Shown here piece by piece: positions 39,900-61,416 of a DNA stretch of 64,000 nucleotides. The first letter of the stretch is position 1. Every line of letters starts with the position of its first letter. Position numbers and translations under genes: made by a program. The notes below the pieces were generated by a model. The model was not told the origin of the DNA, searched no databases, and saw only the letters and a list, made by a program, of their open reading frames with translations. This DNA is from Eremomyces bilateralis CBS 781.70 (taxonomy: Eukaryota): assembly GCA_010015585.1 (NCBI GenBank), contig ML975162.1, one strand, 5' to 3'.

Positions 39900-42318
39900 A
39901 TTGGTTCCAAACGATATCGCTTTGATCACCATCTCCTGTTGATGTCGAAACATTTCTTGAAAAAATCCCTTCATATCATAGCGATGCTTCCTCTCCTGGA
40001 TAGACATTACAATACATCTGTGGTTCCAAAGCAGGGGCTTATCTACAGGATAGTTCCTATTATTGAACATACCAACAAATAGGATGTAATCTTCAAACGA
40101 ATCGACTTCCAAGTGTACGGCTGAGTGAAAATCGCTGATTGCAATAGCATTCCAATTTGACTTTTGGACTAATTATTGAGATACAAAGCTGGTAGACAGT
40201 ACACCCTAATCTACGTCGAATCTTGTCTTCACCTTTTCCCTCTTCTTCATTACCATTACGTACATGGACGGAAGAATTCGAAGCAATAGTAGCTGTCCTG
40301 TGTATGCTAATATTATTTGATGGAATAAGATGGTTCGAAATAGGTTGTACCGGCTATAGAGTAAAGCGCGATCAGAGAACAGGAATGGCTGTTAAGAAGC
40401 TCCACTTGTATAGAGTCTTCAAGAACGCGGATATGGTATCGTTTAATTCGCCAATTATCGGCCTGAGCTGATGCATTCGCCCGAGTCATCTCGGCCTGAT
40501 CAACAATTTCATCTACTAATAACGTGGCAAGATGATGTACCACGGCAAGACGGATTCATTCTTCGGTTGTTTCCGAAGACCATAATATTAGATCATAATA
40601 TTACATGCCCTGGTGTCGACGGGTCTCGGCAGGAAAGGACGGCGGACGAAGGCAAACACACGAGTGGTAGAACGCCAGCCATTGGGAGCTGTCCCTCTGT
40701 TCCACTCCTGCTGGATTATCTATAAGCTGGCTCGTTCTCATGTATGTAGTATCAACTGCACGGCTTTGGAAGTATCAAGTAAACCTCGCTACAATTGAAT
40801 ATGCCTTCCAGTTATTGTAGCGTCTCCCCGTGGAGGGGGAAGCTGACGCTACACCGGAATGGGACTAGCGTCATTCACCATCGCTCTTCCACTGAACTGA
40901 CTGATGCTGCAAAACTCGGCTTTTTACAACACTTTCCCTGCTCCAGGTATGACATGCAGAGAAAAACTGTCCTGAATTTTACATAAACCACGAGGGGGCC
41001 CATTCAGGGCCATCGAATGCGACTTGATCGCGGTAAAGATCCAACATCTGCTCGTTTCCACCAAGTTCGTCCCTGAAATTGGAAATAAGAGCACAGCGCC
41101 ACTCCAATAACAGAGAGTCGGCAATGCTTGATAAAGGTCCATGCTCTTCTACCCTGGGAAGCAGGAACATCTATATCCAGGATTTAGTCTGCCAAGAAAT
41201 CGGAGACGCAGTTTTCAGTATGACCCTATATATCGTTTCTGATAATTTCTCCATTTAGCAGATGTTGAGTCGAGGCCCAGACTGACACATGAAAATGGGT
41301 TGTCTTTGGTACCGATGCGGCAGCCATACCCACAAACATTGGTAGTAATTGGAAAAGAATCTTTTCGGGACTGGATGCCACGACTGCTCAAGTCTCTCAG
41401 GATACGGATCGTCACAGGTTTTTGGCTTGGGTTCCCATAGCCATCATAACCATAGTCGTGAAGCACGGAGTATTTGTGTGGCTTCCGGAGAATGGTATTA
41501 CACCGCCCTTCACCAAGGGTATTGATCCTTGGGTGTTTGAGATACTCTCTGCTAAGCAGAATTTGGTGCCCCTTTCTTTAAAATCAACTGCTCGGACCTT
41601 AGCATCCTGAGGGAGCGTCCCAATATAAGTAGGCTTTGGAGACCGGGGTTATGACGGATGAGCCTCATTTTCATCCCACACTCGTAATCTTCTCGAAATA
41701 TCCAAGCTCTTTCCCAGAATTGATCACTAACGATGAAAAATAAGAGGTCTAGCAACCTGAACTTTGAGGTTTGCTGTCGGGCAAAGTCACCGTTCATGAA
41801 ACGCGCAAGGAGATTCATCTCTTGTTAGGTTTGGATATTAGCCGCAAGGAACCTACCAGCGTACCGACAGTTCTTATATACGAAATCCATTGAATTGACG
41901 GCAGATTTTAACTTGGTTTCATCGTTTTGGTTGATGGAAAGATGGTCGACCTAAAAAGGTATCATCTCTCCGGTGTTTTCGATGAAATCTATGATCCCGT
42001 TAGTAACAATATTGCGAACCTTAGTGCGTTCCCCTCTCTCGAGTGAGTATACCTCTTTGGAGATATTTTCGCCTGGAGATGGACGCCAAGGATAAGAGAC
42101 GGCAACATAATTTGCTTTCGCATTCGGAAGCATCTAAAGTGGTTTTCCGTAACGCCCTCCTCCGATATACATGAAAGCATTCAATCTTCTGGAAAAGTCA
42201 TGAAACTTCCAATTTGATCCGTTTTGGTCTTTAAACGTCTCAATGATCCAATGATTCAGGGACCTCCACGTTCGTTTCGGATTGCTTGAAGCAAAGGCTA
42301 TTTTTGATCCTGCGCCAT
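39900..42318 (-). pseudogene. HET-domain (heterokaryon incompatibility) protein pseudogene; 3' end approximate
   Basis: YVAVSYPW, F*VDHLSINQND, AVNSMDFVYK and FWERAWIFRE HET blocks. Stops at 41951-41953 and 41825-41827; fragmented downstream. Confidence 0.8.
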
Positions 42319-42649
42319 CTTAGTGTAACCTCTTTTGGTTGAGCTTATGCCAAATTAGAACTGAAGTAATTAGTTATAACTAGTTAGGATCCCTGATCTG
42401 TCAAATGTAACCAACTAAGCTAAATCCCCAAAAAGGGACGCCCCTACTAGGAGGCTAGTAGAAGGGCAGATATAGCTAAGGTAATTTTCCTGTGACATGA
42501 TCTATCCATAGTAAGACGTTCCGCGCAAACACTAGGAAGGAAGACCAATAAGTTGAGCACTCGGCACATTGGTGACCCGCCGACCCCCATAAACGAGAGT
42601 ATTGCACCCAGAGCTCTAAGTTAAGCGTGTTCGAGTTAGTAGTTAGTTA

Positions 42650-43513
42650 ACAAAATTGGGCATCATTAGTATGTACTTTAATCTCCGAATCATTTGGCAG
42701 TACTACGATATCGGCGAGACACGTGACCGGTTCCAGCCACCTGTTTGTCACAGAATATCTGTGTTTCTTGGCGTTTCCCCACGGCTTCATTCCGTATTCG
42801 ATTCGATAACCCTATTCTTTCCCTTTTTAGGGAATAGATCACCATTTTAAACCATATAAAATAGCTGCAGGAACAGCCTGTTTTCGTAGGATCTGGCTCT
42901 TCAGGATCAAGTTCAATTTATCTACGCTCTTTTGGAATCTAACGGGGTTTTCCCACCGTGTCGCTGCATTAATCACCTGATTGAGCGAAACCGCTATTTA
43001 TCTCACAAAAGGGACATCCTGTTGCGAAAGTACTTGTGCTCAGAGTCCTTGCTTTTGACTGATACGTTTTGAATCGATCGCAGTGGTAGTAATATCGTGT
43101 TTTGATAGTTATTGGTTTTGTGAGGGTAGCTCTGTTTGACTACGAAGTCGTAGCCATGCTGCATGCCATGGCTCTTAAGAGCGTTATAGGCTTCTTCATA
43201 GGAGGTGTAAAGACAATCCGGAGGGGGTATAATATCCTCCATACTTGGTGCTTGTCATAGACCGACAGGTACTCAATTATAGTAAGTAGTTATTCTGGTA
43301 TTGATAATCTGAATGAGACCTCGAAAGGTTACCAAGGAGTAGAAGGTCTTATAATGCGTTGCGAACGCGTTGCGAACGCGTCGCGAGACTGCTTTGGGAA
43401 ATTATGCGCTAGATTAAATTGGGCGATTAATTTCTATTGTTACTGGCGTTAGGGACAAATCTCATATCATATTGGGGGAAAATCTCAAAATGTTTGGGAC
43501 AAATCTCACCAGC
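42650..43513 (-). mobile_element. truncated Mutator-like fragment (FAR1/WRKY-type DNA-binding N-terminus) with one terminal region, joined to a TA-flanked end of possibly different origin
   Basis: ORF 43242-43003 reads YTSYEEAYNALKSHGMQHGYDFVVKQS, then after a frameshift YYYHCDR...TGCPF. Repeated GGGACAAATCTCA at 43451-43508; left end TA|ACAAAATTGGGCATC. Confidence 0.6.
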
Positions 43514-43545
43514 CTTTTTGAATCGATTCTGAAACTATTCTGATT

Positions 43546-46500
43546 CTATTCCCTACGTCCCAGACCTAGGTAGAGTTCTTGCTCTTTCTGATCATTCTCA
43601 AGTTTCTTTGCGCGGAGCGTCTCTTTCTTCAATTCTAGCTCAATCCGCCTCTCTTCTAGCTGTAACTCTCTTTCCTGTTGCTGAAGCTGCGATTCTCGAA
43701 CCTCATGTGTCTGACGAATAGATTGCTGCGTGGCAACTTGACGAAGAGAGGGAGGTCTGTAATATATTAGTAAAATATTCCGAATATATTCCGAGTGAAT
43801 CTATACCTGAGTGAACTTCTACGATTCCGTTCCGTTGAAGTAGATGTTGATCGAGATAGTCGTCTACGGATAGGAGCTGATTCCTGGGATGATACTGTTG
43901 AGTCAAGGTCGTCGTCCCAACGTCGTCGTCGCCGAGATCCTAAAATATTGATCAACTAACTATAACAAAATGAATAACTAGTTAGTTAGTCATAAAGTAA
44001 TCAAACTTACGATCACGACGTATAACCTCCTGATATCTCTGAGATAGAGACATATTACGATACGTATGGGGCATACCGTATTCTTGTCGATTATCTCGTC
44101 TTTTTAAATCATACTGATCGAGAAGGAGAGCGCTTTTGGAGTTAGTAATATATTCCTAAAATATTCAGAATCTCTTACTAATATATTGCTCTCATCAGAG
44201 GTAGCTTACGCCTAAATGAATTACTCTTAAAATGAGTCTGCTGGACAGCGTTCGTATGATTTCGGGTTCGATCCCACAATTGAGGCGGAATCAAGGAGCA
44301 GTACTTATTAATTCCAGACGCAATCACAGCTCTCTTCTTGTGCTTTGCCCACTCTCGGACTTTTGCGGAGGACTCTGGGTGACCTAAATGTTTTAGAATA
44401 TATTCAATATACATTATGAATACAATTACTTACTCATAAGCTCTTCACAAAGATCATAGTAGTCTTCTTCAGATCGACAGCGGGCTAACTCTCCCATTCT
44501 TGAATGTATTGATGTTGTTGAACGATTTGATGTCCCGGCGGCGCGATCAATAGACCGTTGAAAGTGGATTTGACAGAAGATTACCGTATTCTGAACCTGC
44601 CACTCCCAGGAACGGGATTCGGAATCAAGAGTCGCAAGATATTGCCCAAACCCTAATATATTAGTAATACTTTTTGAATAGCTTCCGAATATATTTCGAA
44701 CCTTCAAGTTGACCAAGTTCCATATCGACGACAACAGTACCGAATCCTCTCCCATGGAGATATTGCCAACAGACTTCTCGTTCTAGCCGAGAAGAGATTA
44801 AAGTAAAGAGGGCTTGAAATGCCTTTTGATAGCAGAGGCTACTTTTACCGTTGACGAAAATCCGCGCGAAGGTAAACGCTATAAACGTTAGAATATATTA
44901 CGAATATGTTCCGAATATTTTATACTCTTCTCAAGTTCGGGGACAAACGCCGCGAGTACAATCTCGTTGATCGAACTCTCGCGAACCCGCTGAAATCCCA
45001 TATCAATTTCAAATGATTCTCTATTAAGAAGAGCCTCCGCCTGCTCTTTGAAGAAACAGGCAATAAGGAGATTCTCTCCATCGAAAAAACATTCTTGAAT
45101 ATACTGATTTATATTAGCAATAATAAATTCATAATAGTTTCACAGCGTGCTACCTGGTCAGGTTTTCCTCCTTGCTTTGAGTACTCGTGCTCGACCGCAG
45201 CAACGGACTCTCCTAATGGATATGATAGGAGTCTTTGCTTCTGAAGCAATGCGCTTACTTTATCAAGGTTTGTAAAGCTCCTATGAACATCAGGCAGAGA
45301 AGTCCCTTGATATTGGGTACAGAAGGCTCGCATTTGCGGATGCTTCAGAAGGCCGGCTGTGAAAGTAAAATATTAGTAATGTATTCGAAATAGTTTTGTA
45401 AGATCTTACCAAGTGTGAGTGAAGGGTTATTGATTCTCTGAATGACCTGAAGGATTTGCTCAAGGTACTGCTGCGGTGTTCTCGTTGGTGGTGGTGGAGG
45501 ATGACTATGCGTTCCACTTGATACCCATACTAGATATGGAGTTCTATCCATATCGAGTGGTTGGAAGACGGTAAAAAGGACCTGGCAAGGCAAAGACACA
45601 AGTTTCCCTTGACCCTGGGTATGATCCACGCCTAAAATATTTAGAAGATATTCGGAATGTGTTCTAATAATATTCATACCACATGTTTTCGCTCGACTAT
45701 TCTGCTGCTTTAGTATAGTACAGACCTCGGACGTAGTATCTTGTACTCCGCTATTGAAGACGGTCTGTAGAAACTCGATCTCAGGGTAGAGTTGTCCTGG
45801 TACCAGTTTCATGAAATGATTTGATCCTGGCGTAGAATTTCTACAAGCAACGTAGAAATTAGGAACTCCAGAAACAGTCTAAGTATGTTAGAATTTATTC
45901 GGAATACAATAAAGAAGCGAAAACCCTGGAATGACCTACCACCTGGTTGCTTTGAAAGATATGAGGATTACAGGAATAATCCTGTATATCCTTACATGCT
46001 TTTTCTTTTGCAAATACAGCTTGTATGGATTGAAAGAAGCTACTATCGTTAATAAACCAGGAATATATTCTAAATGTATTCAGAATTCATTATCACCTGT
46101 TTGCGTTCCGCTTAACACTTGAAATCTTATGTTCCTGACGAATTTCTTGTACTCTCGTCCAGTCGGGCTCTTGAACACTAGTATGATGCATTTCATAGAG
46201 CTCAGGCGCGAGAAACTCGCACGCCTTGACTCCTGTGCATCGATAACTGATACGGTAGCATCTTACATTATCGAGTATTCGAGCTTTGGATTCATGTTTC
46301 GACCACTTGAGCGCAGATGAATATTGAACCTGTAAAATATTAGTAATATATTCGGAATATATATTAAGTTCATACCGTATCAAGCTGATTCGGTCGATTC
46401 ACCAAGTTGATTCCTGATAAATTCACGATATACGCCACGCCATCATCAGATGTATCTGGATAGTCAGGTAGACATGGAGCATGTATTACCTTTCTTACTA

Positions 46501-46723
46501 TAATCTCATGACTTTGGTAATCAGAGATTATAATAGGATCATCTTCAGGCGGGAGAGAGGGACGCGACTAATATATTAGTATAATATTCAGAAAATATTA
46601 GAAAACCAAGCGCACCGAATCTTCTGTAAAAGTGTCTGAATCAAGTTCGGGATAAACGTCGCCTTCGACATCGTCTATTGTCGACCACGAGGTAGAAAAT
46701 CTGACTGAAGGAAATTGACTCAT
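43546..46723 (-). CDS. intron-rich Mutator-like (DDE, CxxH) transposase, 14 exons, 833 aa
   Basis: Introns: 46568-46615, 46330-46375, 46040-46096, 45879-45939, 45632-45679, 45357-45409, 45104-45153, 44879-44925, 44653-44701, 44384-44433, 44133-44178, 43940-44010, 43757-43806. All are GT-AG and phase-compatible; the exons total 2502 nt with no internal stop. Motifs GTHSHPPPP, SFEIDMGFQRV, VVVDMELGQ, FCQIHFQR, HTNAVQQTH. Confidence 0.82.
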
Positions 46724-48225
46724 TTATCGGGAATATATTCGTAATATATTTCTGGTTGTTGATCTTTAGAATGTTTTTTATGAGGGGCAATGGGGGGCTA
46801 GAGCTCAGATGAGAAAGATATATATTATCCGGTTTCAGATCACGTGGACACGTGCTCTCAGCTGAGCACACAGACCATCTCAGATGACCTGTAACCACCA
46901 CTGGTGACCTGGTGAACTGGGTCCTGGTATCCGTCCATCCGTCCTTGGTGTCAACACCCCCAGGGCTCCCTCCCATCAACACTCTCTCAGCCATTTCATC
47001 CATCTGTTTTATACTCCGTTTTACACGAACCACCCAGGATCTCCTTTGCTTATGTTCTAACTTCTACCGGTCTCGACATAGTGATTTTTGGGAGCAACCA
47101 GAATCCATTGGTCAAGCTATGGTCTATGGATGAATACGGAATACGCCCGAAGCTGCGCCGCAATCCATAGAGGTCGATTGAGAGGAACAACTATACAATT
47201 GATTGCTATTCAATATATATGTCCCACAGATGCTAACATCTTCAATTTCGTTTTGCGGCGTGGTGCCTCTCTTCCTCTATGGGGTTTGTACTGGAAGAAC
47301 AATTTTCAATTTACGACCGAATCCTGTTGGCACAACGTATCCCACCGCGAAATGCTCCTTGCTATTGTTTATGCGGGCAGTGGAGCTAGAACTCTACAAA
47401 TGTTGGAGGAAGATACATAACATGCAAGGTATGAGATTCTCACGGCAGAATTAGGGAGACCGCACCCTCAATGTGACAAGGTGAATATATTCCGTAAGTA
47501 GCGATGTTTTTTCGCGATGTCGGCTACAATTGACGATACATGGTTGATGGTTCTGTACCATAAGACTCGATGGGGTGGATTGTGGCTCCCAATCGCTTTC
47601 TCTCCCCAGCAGTTGTTCTCAATCGGGTCTGAATATCATCTTTAGTTGTTATTCATTTGCTCAGATGTGTACTTCTTATTCTAAAAGCTATACATTCACT
47701 CGAGTTGTTACGCCTCCACCATGTTACTCAAAAGGCCCGTCTTTCAGCTCAGTCTTGTTGGACTATTAGGCCTCCAAATCCTTACCTGCCAAGCAAAATA
47801 CATGAAATCTTCACAGCATGGCTTCTCCTTTCAAAAGAATAGTTACCCGAGACTTGATACCAAGCTCCAGGTGTGTCTTGGCGTGTCCTGGCTACGAACA
47901 TGTGCATCCGTTCAATACTCCCAAGGAAATCCTGAATCCAGGGAGTGGAAGCCTGCAGTGTGGATGTACCAATATTCTTCGTGAGCTGAGTCAGTTAGAG
48001 GAGCGGGCTCCTCTGGTGGAGGGGATCGACGCGATGGACGTCTCGACCCAGGCTTTGTACAGAGCTGTGTCTGTTGCTTGCGGGACGTCTTCGTTTCATG
48101 TTTTGTGATTGTGTTCCTTCCACTCCATGAAGATTTCCATTCCAGCATCATCTCCTAAAAAACGAAAAAGGCATCTTATTCTCATACAGGAAATGCTATA
48201 CGAAAATCCGTCCGCACTACCAACA

Positions 48226-49233
48226 TCAATCACTGTTTTCCCCCAATTTCTCTAAGACCAAGTTCAGGTTCTCGCGAGTGAGCAGCGTATTCGGATGGTC
48301 GTCTCCCAACGTTTTCTCATTCCACGCATGGCAGGACTGAAGCTGCAACTTAGCATTCTGTAGCCGACCGATGTTCATGTATGCGACGGCCAAGTTGTTC
48401 ATAATTGCCACGGAAAGCGAATCTTCATCTCGGGCATTCCGAAACACCTGTAAAGCCTCTTCCAGAATCCGAATTGCCTTCTCCACCCCCTCATGTTGTT
48501 CTGCTCCTTCCTGGCCTTGGTCGTCGAGCGCCTTATAGGTATGGGCGAGGTTCAGAATGCACTTAATGGTTGTTGGATTCATTTCCCCCAGCTGAGCCTT
48601 GGCCGTTTCTGCCGCCACCTCCTGCAACTGCACTGCCCGGTCCAACTGACCAAGTCCCCGATACGCAATCCCAAGTAAATCCATCGACGCAATGGTGAGA
48701 GAATGTTCCCTGCCCAGCTCCTGGATCCTCCATTCCAGGATTTTCTCATGCAGCCCCACCGCCTCTTGATATCGTCGCTGGGCCGTATAGAAATTTGCCA
48801 AATTACTGAGCCTGGTCATCGTAGTGTTGGAACTCACGCCAGGTATCTCCATCCAGCCCAGGACTACCTTCTCCTAGAGTTAGGCGCCTTCCTCTATGCG
48901 TCCTTGACCTTTCAGATCGAATGCGAGATTCTCCATGGTGGTGAGAGTGTTTACGTCGTTCTCACCCAGGGTACGTTGTTGTCGTGCCAGAACATCCCGA
49001 TCGATTGGCTCAGCTTCCCCGTGACGGTCCTGCTCTCGGTAGTTGGTAGCCAGCATGAGCTGCGCGGCTGATTTGTCGTCGTCGTCGTCATCGAGGACGT
49101 GTTCAGCAAGTTCAATCGCCTGGAGAAATAAGTTGTTAGACTCGTTCAGATTCCCCTCGAACATTTCGTCGAGGGCGCGGCCTCGTAATTCTCGTATTTG
49201 GGAGTGCGGGGATGGTGGGGAGGATACCATCAT
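48226..49233 (-). pseudogene. TPR-repeat (kinesin-light-chain-like, as in fungal NLR sensors) gene with two in-frame stops
   Basis: Repeats such as LGENDVNTLTTMENLA, LGREHSLTIASMDLLG and LGDDHPNTLLTRENL. Two ORFs in the same frame are separated by TAA 48880-48882 and TAG 48874-48876. Confidence 0.8.
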
Positions 49234-49707
49234 CAGTGACGGTACTGGAGATTTTATTATATGTCTTGGCACCTTTCTGGTTGGGTTTGCATTCATTCAG
49301 GCTGCGTGGAGATACAAAAAGGGGTGTAGGGGGTGTTAGAGAGAGAGAGGTGGACGATTGCTTGATGAGGTTGAGTTTAACGAACACGAATAGCTCGCCT
49401 AGCGTAGCTTGGAATACGAACAATCCTTTCCTTCGTGTATGTATGATGGACCATAAGAAAGGATAGATGAATGTCTGCCTTCCACTCCAAAGTGGTGCCT
49501 ACCCTATCTCTCAACCTTATGAGTTATGAGTATCCCTTTCTGTAAATAAGGGTGAGGTTGTAGAAATACTCTCCCTAGGTAATTATATGAAGAATCTCAT
49601 GAAGGAAGTGATTTGATAAGCCTCGGATAGGCGACGGACGATCATCAGCGCAAGCAACTTAAATAGCTAACTTGATTGAGTGGAGTTACCAAATAATCTC
49701 TATCCCA

Positions 49708-51498
49708 TCACACCCCAGAATACACCGCCGTCACCCCCCTTCCGCACTCCACCCTCTGCTCCACATCCACCCACCTCCCTCCAACCCTTACCCTTGCCCT
49801 CGGCGTGAGCTGCAACCGATTCTCTTCCCCCTCCTCCCCCTCTCCCTCCAAACTCCCAATATACACTGGCGCCGCCACATTATTCCTCTTTCCCGTCCCT
49901 AGCTGATAAAACTCATTGCCCCCAAAAAACAGCACATCCGCCCCCCACTTCGCCTCTCCCGCCCGCATGCTCGTCTCGTTCCCCATCACCGTCGCCACGT
50001 GCGTACTCCCCACGCTCACCCGCCCCACCCGGATCGGCACGATCTGGTTCGCCGCCTCGGACCACTCGTACAGTCCGCTCAGCGCCGGGATCTTCGTCGG
50101 CGCGCTCTGCAGGTGCGTCCACCGCCCGTTGCCTAACGTCCCGTAGATCCCGCTGCCACACGACCACGTGTCCGCGATCACACCTGCGGGACCGAGCCGG
50201 CGCGTCGGCGTCGGGGGCTGGAGTTGCTGCTGGACAAGCTCCGCGGTACCGCCAGCGGTGTCGCGGTGGCCGGTGGGGGAGGGGGCGGTGGGAGTGGCGT
50301 CGACGGCGAAGTAGCTGTTCGAGCCGCCGGCGGCGATGGCGGTAACTTTGGGGGTGGAATTGGTGTAGAGGCGGTGGATGGGGATGAGTGAGGGCACATC
50401 GATGTAGGAGGCGGTGGTGGAGGGGAGGTCGAGGCCGAGTTGGCCGAGAGAGTTGTCGCCGAAGGAGAAGACGCGGCCGTCGCGGTCACGGACGAGGGAG
50501 TGGTAGTCGCCGGCGGCGATTTGGGCGATGGGGAAGCCGCGGAGGGTGGTAAGCTCGTGGCAATGGGAGGTAGAGTCGGGATGGGAGATGCGGGAGAGTG
50601 GGCCGGAAAGGCCGAGTTGGCCACGGCTGGGGAAGGTGGTGGGGGAGGTGGGGGCGGAGAAGACGCGGCCGGAGGAGGTGAGGAGGAGGAGGTGGTCGAG
50701 ACCGGAGGCAATGGCGGTGAATTTTTCGGTCCAGCCTAGGTTAGGGGGAGTGAGTTGGCGGTAGGCGATGGAAGGTGTGCGGCGCCAGCTGAACCAGCCG
50801 GGTTCGGTGGGCGTTTGCAGTTTGGCGGAGATGGGGATGGAGTAGACGGCACCGTTGGTGCCGAGGGCGACGATGCGGTCGCGGGAGATGGCGAGGGATT
50901 TAAGGTTCTTGCCTCGTAGCGTCTTGATGGGGTCGTGGTGCTCCGAGAAGCCTTGGCCCCATTGGAGCAGGTCGCCATTCTCGTCGATGGCGGCGCCAAA
51001 GGTTCGGTCGAGCTTCAGGTCGCGCAGGAGCATGCCGTCAAAGAACGAAAGGCGTCGGGGTGTCTTGATGAACTTCTCGTCGGAGTCGGGAGCCGTGACG
51101 TGACCGCTGTTGGATCCCCATGCATACACTCCTGGATTCTCCAAGCTCTTCTTAACCTGAACATGTTGCGAGCTCAGGAGGTCCCGAGTCTCCTCTTTTG
51201 TTTGTCCCTTCCGTCTCGGCTTCTCAAACTCGAGGACAGGCTCCTCATCCTTTTCCGCCGCTTCCGCGTGCGCAGACGGGAAGCTCAGCGGTCCGGATAC
51301 CAGATGGACGGTCCCTGCTCCGAGACCAGCAGCTACTAGAAGATAGAACGGGGACGTGAAGTGCCGTTGGGAAGCTCGGGAACTATTAGTTGAGATATAT
51401 CTTCGTCCGAACCCTCGCGAATATTGAGACCGTTTCTCGCATGTCGCCTGTAATTGTCGAGTCGCATAGCGCAGACATTGCGCTCGTGTATTGAGCAT
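49708..51498 (-). CDS. FMP25: mitochondrial RCC1-repeat protein Fmp25/Bca1
   Basis: SSQHVQVKKSLENPGVYAWGSNSG, TPRRLSFFDG.LLRDL, IAAGDYHSL, FSFGDNSLGQLG, GGNEFYQLGTGKR; presequence plus TM segment. Confidence 0.85.
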   Translation of the reverse strand: MLNTRAQCLRYATRQLQATCEKRSQYSRGFGRRYISTNSSRASQRHFTSPFYLLVAAGLGAGTVHLVSGPLSFPSAHAEAAEKDEEPVLEFEKPRRKGQTKEETRDLLSSQHVQVKKSLENPGVYAWGSNSGHVTAPDSDEKFIKTPRRLSFFDGMLLRDLKLDRTFGAAIDENGDLLQWGQGFSEHHDPIKTLRGKNLKSLAISRDRIVALGTNGAVYSIPISAKLQTPTEPGWFSWRRTPSIAYRQLTPPNLGWTEKFTAIASGLDHLLLLTSSGRVFSAPTSPTTFPSRGQLGLSGPLSRISHPDSTSHCHELTTLRGFPIAQIAAGDYHSLVRDRDGRVFSFGDNSLGQLGLDLPSTTASYIDVPSLIPIHRLYTNSTPKVTAIAAGGSNSYFAVDATPTAPSPTGHRDTAGGTAELVQQQLQPPTPTRRLGPAGVIADTWSCGSGIYGTLGNGRWTHLQSAPTKIPALSGLYEWSEAANQIVPIRVGRVSVGSTHVATVMGNETSMRAGEAKWGADVLFFGGNEFYQLGTGKRNNVAAPVYIGSLEGEGEEGEENRLQLTPRARVRVGGRWVDVEQRVECGRGVTAVYSGV

Positions 51499-51824
51499 GT
51501 TGACAACCATTGGCCAAGTCCGGGTCAAATGGACTTTTCCAACCCGTTCATTAGAATCAAGTCAAAACCAGCTAGTAGCACATCGAAAGAAATTGGGAAG
51601 ATCAAATAGAATTGAAAAAAGATAGAGGAAGTGTGAGAAAGATAATATAAATCTAAAGTCATGAACGTCACTTTACCAAAATTGCCATAGCGGGACGAAA
51701 GTTCCCCGGAGTCTTGGCATTCAAGATCCCTTGTGGTGCTTCAGTTCGATTAAGGGACTTCGATTAAAATGCCACCAAGACCTATCAGACAAACCACCCT
51801 TCACGTCTCTTAAAGCCGCCCGAA

Positions 51825-54677
51825 ATGTACGATGAGTCTTGGTATAATGCCTTCACTCAGAAGACATCCTGGCAGCCCGAAAGCCAGAAGAAGACCCATC
51901 GTCGACGACCAACGCTCCTTCAGCAACCTAGTGTGAGCCACGTATTCCCACCGATTCACCCGTTCATCGTATACTAAGCTCCGTATGATAATAGGAAGAA
52001 GCACTGCCGGAGAATGAGGTCGCCAATCAACCTGATCTAAGCACTGCCTTGGACCCGCCGGTCGAGATATGTCCACCTCAGGCGACGGTGGCCCGCAGAG
52101 CGAAGTCGTATAGTGACTTCTATGATATCGTGCGAGCACACTTGAAGAAGGAAAAGGAGGATGAAAAGCGGAAGCTTCGACAAGCTTTGAAGACCGATAT
52201 CGACTTCGAGAGATGGTACTCGGGCATCATGCCGTCAATTGAGAAGAAGAGCTTCCCGCAATACCAGTATGTGACCAGCAAATGGTGGTCGAGTTATCCA
52301 AGCCATTCGCTAACTCCCTTGGAGGCTATATCTGGATCAGCTCCGTCTAGCAGAGTCGCATCTGGAATATCTAGCCTCTCAAACCACCTCATCCCTCGAC
52401 CTCCTACGTCAGCTGTCGAGCTCGTTTAGTTCCGTGGAGAAGCAAACAAGTGCCTTCCGGAAGCAATGCGAAGGGTTGCTATCCGAGCAGAAATCAAACC
52501 TCCAGCTTGCAGACCAAATCGCCGAAAACCTGGAATACTATACCTACCTCGAACCGATCACACGGAGATTGAATGCCCCGGGTGCCGCCAACCGGGTCCG
52601 GCAAAAAGAATTCTCGGATATGCTGGGTGATTTGGACCGTTGCATTGAGTACATGCAATCTCATGTACGTACATGGAACCTCCAAGGAGATTATATCATT
52701 ACTGACTCCCATTTAGCCTAACCAAAAGGAAGCCTCGACCTATGGATCGCGGTATAAGCAGCTATTAACCAGAGCTCTCACCCTTATTCGCGTGCATTTC
52801 ACCAATTCTCTTCGCGAGATCGCTGCAGACGTGTCCAAACGTATTGCCGACCGACAGCTCAACGACACGACCATGTCGGCGCTCTTGTACGCTAAATTCC
52901 GCGTCGGTGCCCCCGACCTACGCAAGGTTGGTCTCGAAATCCAGAAGCGAGCAATCCTCCCCAAGGATGCAGCACCGGATGCGGAACCAGAGTACCAAAG
53001 CTTGATGAACGAGATGTTTCAAAGCTATTCCACCACACGCGGTCGCCTGATCCTTCCGATTGTATCGAAGAAAATGTCCGAAATCGCCATGGCGCCAAGC
53101 ACCGCGAAGGATCTGGTCACTTTCTCGCGGAGCTCCATCAGCTACATTCGGGGCATCTGCATGGATGAATACGATCTTTGGCAGGAATGGTTTGACTCGG
53201 ACCATGCGCTCTACGATTTCTTGGATGCGATGTGCGAGCCGATGTATGATCATCTGCGACCACGAATCATCCACGAAACGCAGATATTGAAGCTATGTGA
53301 GCTATGTACGTTGATACAATCGCGGTACATGGAGGAGGATGAAGATGATCTGCAGTCACCAATCTCGGCTCGGTTGGATTTCGCATCGTTGATCCATCCT
53401 GCCCTCGAGGACGCGCAAACGAGACTGGTTTTCCTTGCGATGGGAATATTACGAACGGACATCGAGCACTTCAAGCCCAAACCTGAAGACCTAGATTACC
53501 CTGCTCGGAACCGGATTCGGGCGAGTGCTACTAATGGAAACAAGGCGCCTGCCCTCTCAGGCCGGCGGGAGGCCAAAGATCCATCCAAACCAGCAGAAAC
53601 GCCGACGATTGGAGAAGAGGACGGGATTGAGTCAACCCTGAAGTTCGAACCATCATCCAAGGACTGGTACCCAACTCTACGCAGAGCGATTTGGCTCCTG
53701 GGTCGAATATACCGGCTTGTCAATGTGCGCCCCCTTGTTTTCTCCTCCTCAACGCCACTAACCATCTATAGTCTACCGTCTTCGATGATCTTGCCCACCA
53801 AATCCTCCACCAAACAACTCACTCTATCCTTCGCGCCAGCAACCTCATCATCCCCCGCTCCTCTCCCACCGACGCCAACCTCTTCACCATCAAGCACCTC
53901 CTCCTCCTCAAACAACACATCGCCGCCTTCGACCTTGAAACTGGCTTCGCCCAAGCCCCGCCCGAAGTCAACTTCGACTTCTCCGGCCTCACCAGCACCT
54001 TCTGGGGCAGCGACTGGCTCAGCATGCCCGGGAAGCTCGTCCGCGCTGTCATGGCCGGCCAGCTCGGCCGCCTCATGCCGCGCGTCGTGCGCGACTACCA
54101 TGACGCGAAGGGCGAGGTCGACGAGGCGCTGCGCGTGGCCATCGGGGCGTTCGTCGAGAGCATCGCGGGGAGGATGACGGGCCCGATTCGAGAAGGGGGT
54201 CGCACCGTCGAGCCCCCCGTTAGCGCGAAACCCGCGAAGTCGAACTCGGCGAAGGCGAAAGACGATGCGGCGAACGGCCAGAACGGGCATGTGGAGGCGA
54301 ATAGCGGGACATCGGAGACTGCGAGGGTGAAGGCGGCGGTGGCGCAAGGGGTTCCGTTCCTCCGGCAGAAGCTGGACGAGTATATTGGGGATGTGCGGAC
54401 GAAGGAGATGCTCGTCGCGGCGGTGATGGAGCAGGTGACAACGACGTACGAGGCGTTCTGGGGGTCGCATAGCAGACGCGGCAATGCTGGGACTGGAGCC
54501 GCGGAGTCGACTGGAGCGGGGACGAAGGGGAAGCGGAGGGAGGATGAGAATTGGGAGCCGGCGGCGTTTGCGGAGTGGTGTGAAGGGGTGTTTATGGTTG
54601 GGAGGTCGGTTTTTGGCTTTGAGGATGAAGATGACGGGAGAAGTAGTGGGGAATTGAGTCGGGATGGGAGCATTTAG
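51825..54677 (+). CDS. COG3: conserved oligomeric Golgi complex subunit 3 (Sec34), ~5 exons
   Basis: RRAKSYSDFY, LEPITRRLNAPGA, LTRALTLIR, SALLYAKFRVGAP, DAQTRLVF, WYPTLRRAIWLLGRIYRLVN|STVFDDLAHQI. Confidence 0.93.
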
Positions 54678-54886
54678 TTTCGGGACCAATGAACACCATG
54701 AAGAGAGAATATATTACATTGCTTATTGTATAACATGTGAAAAGTTAGGGTATCATATAATCTGCGCTTTGTTGGCAAAGAACAAATTCCCATGGACGCG
54801 ATACCGACATCGCCATTAGCAGTCCTCAAACGACAGGAGAAAGCCCTCCGAAAGCGCATGAACCCATACTCGGGTATATCGTTCCA

Positions 54887-60443: not shown

Positions 60444-61416
60444 GTTGAATATAATTTTTGGAAGGGTTTGGACCGGGAATTCTTAGCACAGCTAAAGCGA
60501 AGGGAAGGAGGGATGTGTGGATTTCGAATCATGGCTTCGGATCGTGAGCGGGTGGATCTTATATCACGGATCAGACACGGTGCAATTTCGTCAAAGATTG
60601 ACACACAAAGGCTTGTCATCCATTGCGTAGCTTTTAGACAAAGGATACGGTTGGCGAAATGAAGATGGAAATGTTGCAGTCAAAGAATGGATGTGTCCGA
60701 TTGTTGGGGACTAAGTTGAACGATTGTGAATTAATATCTCCAAAAAGGAGAAATTGCCCACGACGGATGGCGGATCTGTCTCGCTGAAGGCCTTATGCAA
60801 CTGCTGGACGGTCCATAGCTTTGCACAGTGCTGAAATATGCTCCCGTCCTTGAGTATCCGAGGGATGATAAGTCTGTCACGAAGAGCCAAACAACAGCAA
60901 GACAATCGTACTTGACGAATCGTAGAAACAAGGGTTTGTGGCGCCTCCGAGCAGCTCGGCAGCAGACAAATAACTTTGTCATTTCAATAAAGACAAAAAT
61001 AGGGATATCGTTCGCCCATGGTCCTGATTAAACGTCTCGAGGAGGATGTTTCGTCATCGAAGCCACAGTTGTCGTTCGAATCTTGACCAGTACCAGCTGA
61101 CAAGGTAACACTCCTTGATGTTTTGTTAGTTTAGACTCATCTCGAATATTGGTTGGTTGAGCTCACGTGGTCATTAGTCTAGTAATATGGTTTTGTAGAG
61201 TCTTGGAATACCGCAGCTTCCATGATAGCGGATTGAAGGAGATATAGCGACCATTTCAGACTTCAATTTAGCCGAGGTTTTGAGACCGTTGGTCACAATA
61301 TGAAGCGAGGCTGATGGTTAGAAATCGCAGCAATCTCCACACCGTGTCTCAACTAAGAACGAGCCTGCGACCATATAGAGCGTATCGAATAAGTACTCGG
61401 TGGGCTGCTCCCTTGC

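Follow-up and report, generated by a model that had tools for sequence, protein, structure and literature searches.

Phased 11-nt units in the introns of a Mutator-like transposase-family gene of Eremomyces bilateralis, candidate arrays of protein-binding sites

The window analyzed here is a stretch of 64,000 nucleotides (nt) from the Dothideomycete Eremomyces bilateralis CBS 781.70 (contig ML975162.1 of assembly GCA_010015585.1), and the subject is a Mutator-like transposase-family gene on its minus strand, in which 12 of the 13 coding introns are built from tandem copies of one 11-nt unit. The gene runs from an ATG at 46723 to a stop codon at 43548-43546. Intron joints were taken from the contigs of sequencing run X1; the kind of run was guessed to be RNA, and the contigs skip every intron and are therefore transcript-like. 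The depth of the X1 contigs was not taken as a measure of expression. Fourteen GT..AG stretches are skipped by these contigs, corresponding to the 13 coding introns and one intron in the 3' untranslated region (3'UTR), and the contigs correct intron 3 to 46096-46040 (57 nt) and intron 4 to 45939-45879 (61 nt). Our own spliced protein-to-DNA aligner recovered 13/13 of the RNA-supported introns of the gene. With 13 introns in 2.5 kb, the intron density is unusually high. Exon 10 shares 100% identity with a protein deposited at NCBI for the same strain. The deposited protein, P0001, has 481 amino acids (aa), lacks the first exons and starts in exon 5; its model treats the stretch that carries an N..Q..H motif as an intron and uses another acceptor for intron 12. 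Support for the longer structure of 833 aa, which has a coiled coil at its C-terminus, comes from the transcript contigs and from the model of a same-species paralogue. The gene and its arrays are listed below in the direction of transcription; all intron boundaries are from the X1 contigs and the aligner.

43546..46723, minus strand, coding sequence of the Mutator-like transposase-family gene, 14 exons and 13 introns, 833 aa (gene model, X1 contig joints and our own spliced aligner)
46729..46752, minus strand, 5' leader, two units, 6-29 nt before the ATG, transcribed (a contig reaches ~46776)
46568..46615, minus strand, intron 1, 48 nt, three phased units
46330..46375, minus strand, intron 2, 46 nt, three to four phased units
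46040..46096, minus strand, intron 3, 57 nt, RNA-corrected boundary, three phased units
45879..45939, minus strand, intron 4, 61 nt, RNA-corrected boundary, two weaker units at the 3' end
45632..45679, minus strand, intron 5, 48 nt, in frame, four phased units
45357..45409, minus strand, intron 6, 53 nt, four phased units, 5' splice site in register
45104..45153, minus strand, intron 7, 50 nt, two degenerate units
44879..44925, minus strand, intron 8, 47 nt, three phased units
44653..44701, minus strand, intron 9, 49 nt, four phased units
44384..44433, minus strand, intron 10, 50 nt, three phased units
44180-44187, minus strand, in-register AATATATT core in the last 10 nt of exon 11 (core scan)
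44133..44178, minus strand, intron 11, 46 nt, three to four phased units
43940..44010, minus strand, intron 12, 71 nt, the exception, in which the last unit alone (AATATTTTAG) matches the design
43757..43806, minus strand, intron 13, 50 nt, three phased units
43519..43551, minus strand, three degenerate units, GAATAGAATCA GAATAGTTTCA GAATCGATTCA, from the last sense codon across the stop codon (scan for self-match at a lag of 11 nt)
43353..43382, minus strand, 3'UTR, three units of 11 bp, CG-rich at the centre (GACGCGTT cgc AACGCGTT cgc AACGCATT) (motif and lag scans; covered by a transcript contig)

Each unit consists of an 8-nt core, AAYRYRTT (mostly AATATATT in the window gene), and a 3-nt spacer, and the units are joined head-to-tail, often as TTCnGAA. 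Two to four of them make up 12 of the 13 coding introns; intron 12 and the 3'UTR intron deviate. In each motif intron the branch point (aCTAAT or CTAAC) comes from the last spacer and the last core together, and the acceptor from the ...ATT at the end of the unit plus AG; in several introns the donor (GTAAGA, GTATGA) also falls in register, the whole intron being writable as units from donor to acceptor. The introns of one gene normally share splice signals alone. An earlier note on this DNA had described most introns of the gene as variants of one design; the three introns that it quoted were recovered exactly on the minus strand, at 46375-46330, 43806-43757 and 44925-44879, and with 12 of 13 introns fitting, the design was found to be more regular than described, since it is composed of 11-nt units. 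The overlap that was reported between the motif and the CTAAT/CTAAC branch point lies in the last unit, which carries the branch point, and equally real is the copy placed before the ATG (46729-46752), outside an intron, which is covered by a transcript contig with a shorter side of 161 nt at the intron-1 joint. The array at 43353-43382 has the architecture of the intron units, with CGC as its spacer and all four centre bases changed by transitions; it may belong to the same system, represent an older form of it, or be the end of a neighbouring transposon fragment.

Within the 64-kb window, the units are confined almost entirely to this gene. Exact matches to GAATATATT were counted on both strands of the window, giving 15 strand-matches where 0.47 were expected and where 0/100 shuffles reached 15; 12 of the 15 lie within 43782-46740, and the other three are a palindromic site at 47483/47484 and one match at 54707. 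The 19-mer of the earlier note, AATATATTCSGAATATATT, has zero exact copies in the window and 12 matches at three or fewer mismatches, all of them at 43761-46750 (0.01 expected). The double unit AAYRYRTT-N3-AAYRYRTT, allowing up to one mismatch, was matched 16 times in the window against 0.11 expected; 16/16 matches fall inside 43353-46750, and none was found in the rest of the window. A window-wide scan for self-match at lag 11 gave seven clusters, all within 43340-46376, compared with 0.05 in shuffled sequence. In the introns of the window gene, self-match is 0.51 at lag 11 and 0.45 at lag 22, and about 0.30 at other lags; the lag-11 value (0.507) compares with 0.315 in dinucleotide-preserving shuffles, of which 0/1000 reach it. 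The core AATATATT is present in 8/13 introns (shuffle mean 0.47; 0/1000 reach 8), and the 13 introns hold 14 AAYRYRTT sites (shuffle mean 0.92; 0/1000 reach 14). For lag-11 self-match and AAYRYRTT counts alike, 0/1000 shuffles reach the observed values in any of the three genes that are compared below. Per kb, the introns hold 20.7 AAYRYRTT sites and the exons 0.8, and the remainder of the window holds 0.18. A+T makes up 75% of the introns and 55% of the exons, and the locus lies within a low-GC stretch of the window.

Shuffling that preserves dinucleotides had been named in the earlier note as a check that could refute the motif, and the observation stands after it. The same note had stated that host introns lack the motif, which agrees with the absence of the double unit from the remainder of the window and with the two RNA-supported host introns (53725-53771 and ~61113-61166), neither of which contains it. 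A larger host intron set, selected by splice pattern, was discarded, as 27 candidates were obtained outside the gene and 25.9 in shuffled sequence. For the CAGCTGAGA box, 15 matches were counted in the window and 16.25 were expected, which is no enrichment.

Relatives were collected by a HMMER search, which returned 761 related proteins at E <= 0.001, with full-length members in Plenodomus, Coccidioides, Polytolypa, Hypoxylon, Jackrogersella and Microsporum; two Hypoxylon loci encode one identical protein. One same-species paralogue was found (P0004, 55% identity). A metagenome scan yielded four loci, L001 to L004; the last three overlap at 99-100% and represent a single element. A scan of viral contigs yielded no relatives. 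The genes compared as independent are the window gene, L001 and L003+L004 (each ~55% identical in protein to the window gene), and the intron boundaries of L001-L004 are from our own aligner. Intron positions and phases are common with the window gene in every comparable case (L001 10/10, L003 9/9, L004 4/4), as obtained in the comparison with homologues that the earlier note had called for. At four-fold synonymous sites, the window gene and L001 are identical at 39/157 (25%), compared with 27% expected from composition, and these sites are thus saturated. The introns of L001 nevertheless have a lag-11 self-match of 0.56, with AATATATT in 7/10 of them as well as the variants AATACATT, AATGCATT and AATGTATT, and the L001 leader has three units immediately before the ATG, 3-40 nt upstream. 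L003+L004 have a lag-11 self-match of 0.46 and the unit types TAACATGTT and TAACATATT; in these genes as well, other lags give about 0.30 and lag 22 is raised. Orthologous intron pairs of the window gene and L001 scored 17.5 in likeness and non-orthologous pairs 15.7. The excess of within-gene over between-gene intron likeness is nil for these two genes (reached in 725/2000 permutations), and gene-specific flavours of the motif, as would be expected from co-evolution, are not upheld between them; L003+L004 do have a flavour of their own relative to the other two genes (0/2000 permutations). It is the motif and its phasing that are conserved, and not an ancestral intron sequence. Neutral sequence has been randomized, and the persistence of motif and phasing speaks for selection, or else for continual renewal of the units by some process.

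Indirect evidence on more relatives was obtained from gene calls whose peptides read through intron positions. The retained-intron peptide of P0004 is compatible with AAYRYRTT at nt offsets 13, 24 and 35, which are 11 apart. Among relatives of at least 40% identity, 15/15 such peptides are motif-compatible, compared with 2/15 adjacent exon controls, and among relatives below 40% identity, 11/24 are; some of these peptides share one cluster and are not independent, and all evidence of this kind is indirect. The intron positions would thus seem to be older or more durable than the motif. In L001, intron 1 (456-531) contains three identical 11-mers, TTCTAATACAT, and measures 76 nt, compared with 48 nt in its orthologue, and intron 7 (1929-1987) contains two identical units; gain of units by slippage seems to be ongoing in L001.

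The arrangement of bases within the unit bears on whether it is read on DNA or on RNA. Both in the window gene and in L001, the matrix of the units has mirror symmetry, in line with the earlier description of the motif as nearly its own reverse complement. The base before the core (G16/T9/A3/C0) mirrors the base after it (C13/A12/T3/G0), although unit selection took no account of these two positions. Self-reverse-complement matching exceeds that of shuffles (3/200 reach it for the window gene and 0/200 for L001). The centre variants TATA, TACA, TGCA, CATG, CACG and CGCG are all separated by transitions, and the asymmetric ones are found in either orientation in L001 (TACA six times, TGTA three times). 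Intron RNA folding was compared with that of dinucleotide shuffles and gave mean z values of -0.17, -0.57 and -0.17 for the three genes, with z < -2 in just 2/36 introns. A two-fold symmetric protein that reads double-stranded DNA would be expected to give rise to symmetry, to the use of both orientations and to sites roughly one helical turn apart; for a single-stranded RNA target, these features would be without obvious meaning.

The encoded protein was characterized through the model of a Plenodomus relative, P0005 (857 residues; predicted local distance difference test score, pLDDT, 84.3; predicted template modelling score, pTM, 0.72). Its core matches the transposase of ISCth4 (IS256) (Foldseek E 8.3e-5, prob 1.00; Z 10.7, root-mean-square deviation [rmsd] 5.3, 260 aligned), and the next matches are Hermes (Z 10.1) and the P element (Z 9.5). 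On this model, the assignment to the class of RNase H-like transposase folds is firm, and that to a superfamily (IS256/Mutator) less so. At its N-terminus the model resembles the GCM domain bound to DNA (Z 8.9, rmsd 3.8, 137/157 aligned, model range 45-389), a match to be taken as moderate given that the whole 857-residue model was searched, and the WRKY33 DNA-binding domain was matched at Z 5.4 (76/79 aligned). A long C-terminal helix ends the model. A zinc-finger DNA-binding domain of the WRKY/GCM1 type is typical of MULE transposases. The nearest named protein-atlas clusters carry PF10551 MULE or ZSWIM RNaseH-like labels (0.85-0.90; leads only), and the label 'MULE transposase domain-containing' stems from UniRef. 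Pfam, including PF10551, gave nothing above the cut-off for the 14 exons, P0001, P0004 and 33 relatives, and a profile search against solved structures gave a chance-level match alone (E 0.37). The family alignment conserves D (IDMxFKR), D (DMDxxQ), CxxH and N..E..H, and from this pattern the residues are putatively catalytic. At the conserved Glu, the window gene has a CAG codon for Gln, where relatives read TNATEQ and TNAVEQ; Glu is kept in the same-genome paralogue, in the L004 gene (TNAVEQ) and in 30 pattern-matching relatives. The copy with Q for E is otherwise intact, spliced and present in the transcript contigs. Taken together, these results make the gene a member of a Mutator/IS256-like transposase family, and the window copy looks more like an expressed, possibly catalytically impaired and immobile gene than like an active transposon. 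This codon and three further features of the locus are as follows.

44241..44243, minus strand, CAG (Gln) codon at the conserved Glu of the family, TNAVQQTH (family alignment)
43434..43509, minus strand, 3'UTR intron, 76 nt, without 11-nt units, with a direct repeat of 17 nt, 44 nt apart (GTTWGGGACAAATCTCA on the plus strand) (X1 contigs)
46790..46920, minus strand, probable promoter with the blocks CAGCTGAGAG, CACRTGA, TATA-like AATATATATCT and TCTCAnnTGAGCT (shared with L001 and L003)
47483..47492, no strand assigned, lone GAATATATTC palindrome, not within the window gene's transcript but in the upstream gene's 3'UTR (9-mer scan)

The upstream 170 bp of the window gene aligns in blocks with L001 (100-260) and L003 (1-120) despite the saturation of synonymous sites, and these blocks are probably a conserved promoter or terminal sequence. 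The lone GAATATATTC palindrome may be a chance occurrence. No second intact gene was recognized at the locus (41800-48400). The upstream neighbour (47075-51580, minus strand) is a 4.5-kb intron-free transcript contig that ends at 47075, and the C-terminus of its product has what we take to be TPR repeats of fungal NLR-type proteins. Within the 3'UTR of the transposase-like gene, a frameshifted open frame (42972-43254, minus strand) has the motifs ..YEEAYNALKSHGMQHGYDF.. and ..YYHCDRFKTYQSKA..GCPF and is without a Pfam match; it presumably resembles the zinc finger of FAR1/WRKY type that ordinary Mutator-like transposases carry at the N-terminus. An open frame at 41951-42133 (minus strand), with ..YVAVSYPWRPS.., presumably resembles the beginning of the HET (heterokaryon incompatibility) domain known from fungi.

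We propose that the arrays are protein-binding sites on double-stranded DNA, most economically for the product of the gene itself or of a paralogue, and assign this reading a probability of roughly 0.45. The phased cis-acting arrays would then be the 12 motif introns together with the 5' leader and the first part of the 3'UTR, and their reader would be a sequence-specific, probably two-fold symmetric protein; successive sites, 11 bp or about one helical turn apart, lie on the same face of the helix. The splice signals are written into this lattice, with aCTAAT/CTAAC as the branch point, ...ATT+AG as the acceptor and GTAaGA or GTAtGA starting a unit. The candidate binder, the own product or a paralogue, belongs to a family whose model combines a DNA-binding fold of GCM/WRKY type with a Mutator/IS256-type core and, at the C-terminus, a helix. 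The arrays would serve self-recognition, either for autoregulation or for protection from silencing in the manner of the VANC proteins discussed below, and their placement in introns and untranslated regions would give a high density of sites along the locus while leaving the codons unconstrained. We infer all three elements of this proposal, namely the level of action (DNA), the binding protein and the effect of binding. The earlier note had suggested that the element stores either hairpin or protein-binding sites in its introns. The hairpin idea was discarded because the intron RNAs fold like their shuffles; the protein-binding part fits best, given the phasing, the symmetry, the two orientations, the units in the untranslated regions and the persistence of the motif.

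Several observations weigh against this proposal. The motif could not be matched to any known factor, and binding is a prediction from the sequence; the analogy with VANC is one of resemblance only. Heat-shock elements, Mcm1, pairs of Zn2Cys6 CGG sites, Yap1 TTACTAA and, for the AACGCGTT array, APSES/MCB were considered, and none fits the spacing or the conserved positions, Yap1 being rejected because TTACTAA is the branch point. The branch-point junction TTACTAA also builds in part of the mirror symmetry, and in L003+L004 the period is kept while the units differ and reverse-complement symmetry is absent (165/200 shuffles reach the value). The identical repeats in introns 1 and 7 of L001 indicate that slippage also shapes the arrays. 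The comparison rests on three independent genes, with the boundaries in L001-L004 from the aligner alone. Terminal inverted repeats were not found between 46724-49000 and 41000-43546, where the best match was 12 nt (E 0.28), and with one same-genome paralogue found, the gene may be immobile. Finally, all arrays lie inside the transcribed unit, which leaves room for a role at the RNA level.

Such a role would have an RNA-binding protein read the units on the pre-mRNA or mRNA, with the intron units serving as branch-point-like or enhancer elements for introns with weak donors and the copies in the untranslated regions acting in translation or stability. The location of every array within the transcript fits this explanation, as does the coincidence of the last unit with the branch point, which is invariable, and upstream units are sometimes branch-point-like too (TCTAAT three times in intron 1 of L001; GTAAC and TTAAC in intron 8 of L003). 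The fungal donor consensus is GTRNGT; only 3/13 donors of the gene have this form, and 8/13 have A at position +6. The leader units, moreover, lie close to the ATG, at 6-29 nt in the window gene and 3-40 nt in L001. A single strand, however, gives no reason for mirror symmetry or for two orientations of the asymmetric variants, RNA structure is not above that of shuffles, most upstream units of the window gene (CGGAAT, CTGAAT) do not resemble branch points, and the design is present in no other intron of the window. Reading at the RNA level is therefore considered unlikely. It is about equally unlikely that the arrays are a historical residue, in which ancestral introns arose by insertion or expansion of an 11-bp tandem unit, introner- or minisatellite-like, were regenerated by slippage and are now functionless. 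The perfect repeats of L001 (three in intron 1, two in intron 7), the orthologue lengths of 76 vs 48 nt, the unusual richness in introns (13 in 2.5 kb) and the possibility of writing an entire intron as units are all in keeping with such an origin. Synonymous sites are saturated, yet identical AATATATT cores are present in 8/13 introns of the window gene and 7/10 of L001, and slippage homogenizes sequence inside one intron and cannot hold one consensus across 13 introns and the untranslated regions. Distant relatives also seem to keep the positions as the motif fades (11/24 below 40% identity vs 15/15 above), although this evidence is indirect. The related suggestion in the earlier note, that the introns were created serially from an introner-like unit, fails as a recent process, given the shared positions, the saturated sites, the ordinary lengths (46-61 nt, with one of 71) and the absence of the motif from the other 60 kb; a remote origin of this kind is neither shown nor excluded.

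The most easily dismissed explanation is compositional: in a gene derived from a transposon, introns that are rich in A+T and in TpA, as repeat-induced point mutation could make them, might simply look alike. The difference in A+T between introns (75%) and exons (55%), the low-GC setting of the locus and the separation of the centre variants by transitions alone agree with this. It was rejected, since dinucleotide-preserving shuffles reproduce neither the motif counts nor the periodicity (0/1000); the spacing is exactly 11, with a recurrence at 22, and three genes at saturated divergence share the design. An artefact of composition is thus very improbable.

Among known systems, subterminal transposase-binding repeats of cut-and-paste elements, such as the 12-bp TnpA motifs of En/Spm and the hexamers of Ac, resemble the arrays in having many copies of a short site, an element-encoded DNA-binding domain and consequences for the transcription of the element itself (proposed here). 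The transposase of AtMu1 is likewise described (bioRxiv 10.64898/2026.08.24.746577) as binding its own terminal repeats. Subterminal sites cluster at the ends of elements, whereas here they are spread over the transcription unit with one array per intron, and terminal inverted repeats were not found in the flanks that were compared.

The closest parallel is VANDAL21, a Mutator-like element of Arabidopsis. VANC21 binds a 9-nt motif of which tandem repeats have built up within introns, in intergenic stretches and in non-coding terminal parts of VANDAL21 (PMC5735166), and this binding removes silencing marks from the element (PMC5735166; PMC10398659). Both cases have a Mutator-superfamily locus with a short motif in tandem in introns, upstream and in terminal non-coding parts and not in exons, repeats that gain and lose units, and motif variants that differ among related elements. 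VANDAL21 differs in its separate accessory binder VANC, in binding documented by chromatin immunoprecipitation (ChIP) and gel shift, in a motif that is 9 nt long and non-palindromic and in fast-diverging repeats; in E. bilateralis, one gene is seen, with an 11-bp lattice of the palindrome class that includes the splice signals, is kept over saturating divergence, occurs in a fungal host and is known from sequence alone. In bioRxiv 10.64898/2026.08.24.746577, a MuDR-type transposase alone is reported to activate cognate copies in a sequence-specific manner, and domesticated relatives to lose DDE residues recurrently, a loss with which the change from E to Q in the window copy would be consistent. 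A broader version of our proposal is doubtful, and we rate it below the binding of the arrays by a protein as such. It would hold that a Mutator-derived family of filamentous ascomycetes made nearly all of its non-coding sequence (13 introns and both untranslated regions) an 11-bp lattice for its own GCM/WRKY-type domain, as a fungal counterpart of VANC for autoregulation or escape from silencing; that the sites explain why the intron-rich structure was kept, or how it was created by intronization of arrays; and that the Q copy is a regulator and not an active transposase.

Families of similar introns are also known from fungi. Introner-like elements were described in 2012 as having a predicted RNA structure more stable than that of ordinary introns; in the three genes compared here, the mean z values (-0.17, -0.57, -0.17; 2/36 below -2) give no such stability. 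According to PMC4457414, regular introns measure 50-55 bp and introner-like elements are longer. The introns of the window gene resemble the introner-like elements of Dothideomycetes covered there in being mutually similar spliceosomal introns of the same taxonomic class, and differ in that the 12 motif introns are 46-61 nt long, belong to one gene family, occupy anciently shared positions and retain the motif. They are not classic introner-like elements by length, age or structure, and they lie in one gene within the 64-kb window. The sister (stw)introns of Hypoxylaceae (PMC8469720) have terminal inverted repeats of 45-55 nt that may form double-stranded RNA and have spread to many genes. They share with our introns sequence similarity in a fungal host and internal symmetry; here the symmetry is in a unit of 8-10 bp every 11 nt, RNA structure is at chance level, and proliferation was not seen. 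No published description of the introns of this transposase-like family was found in the full-text literature that was searched.

The gene has an entire intron set from one repeated unit that was kept after synonymous sites had been randomized, and such clear selection on intron sequence is rare. If the units act on RNA, they would be a new gene-specific signal for splicing or translation. If it is the product of the gene that binds them, then on the full-text literature searched the gene would be the first of transposon type in fungi to store its own recognition sites in its introns, and with short sites, a small gene and a culturable fungus, it would offer a tractable system for the change from transposase to regulator, for escape from silencing and for the retention or gain of introns.

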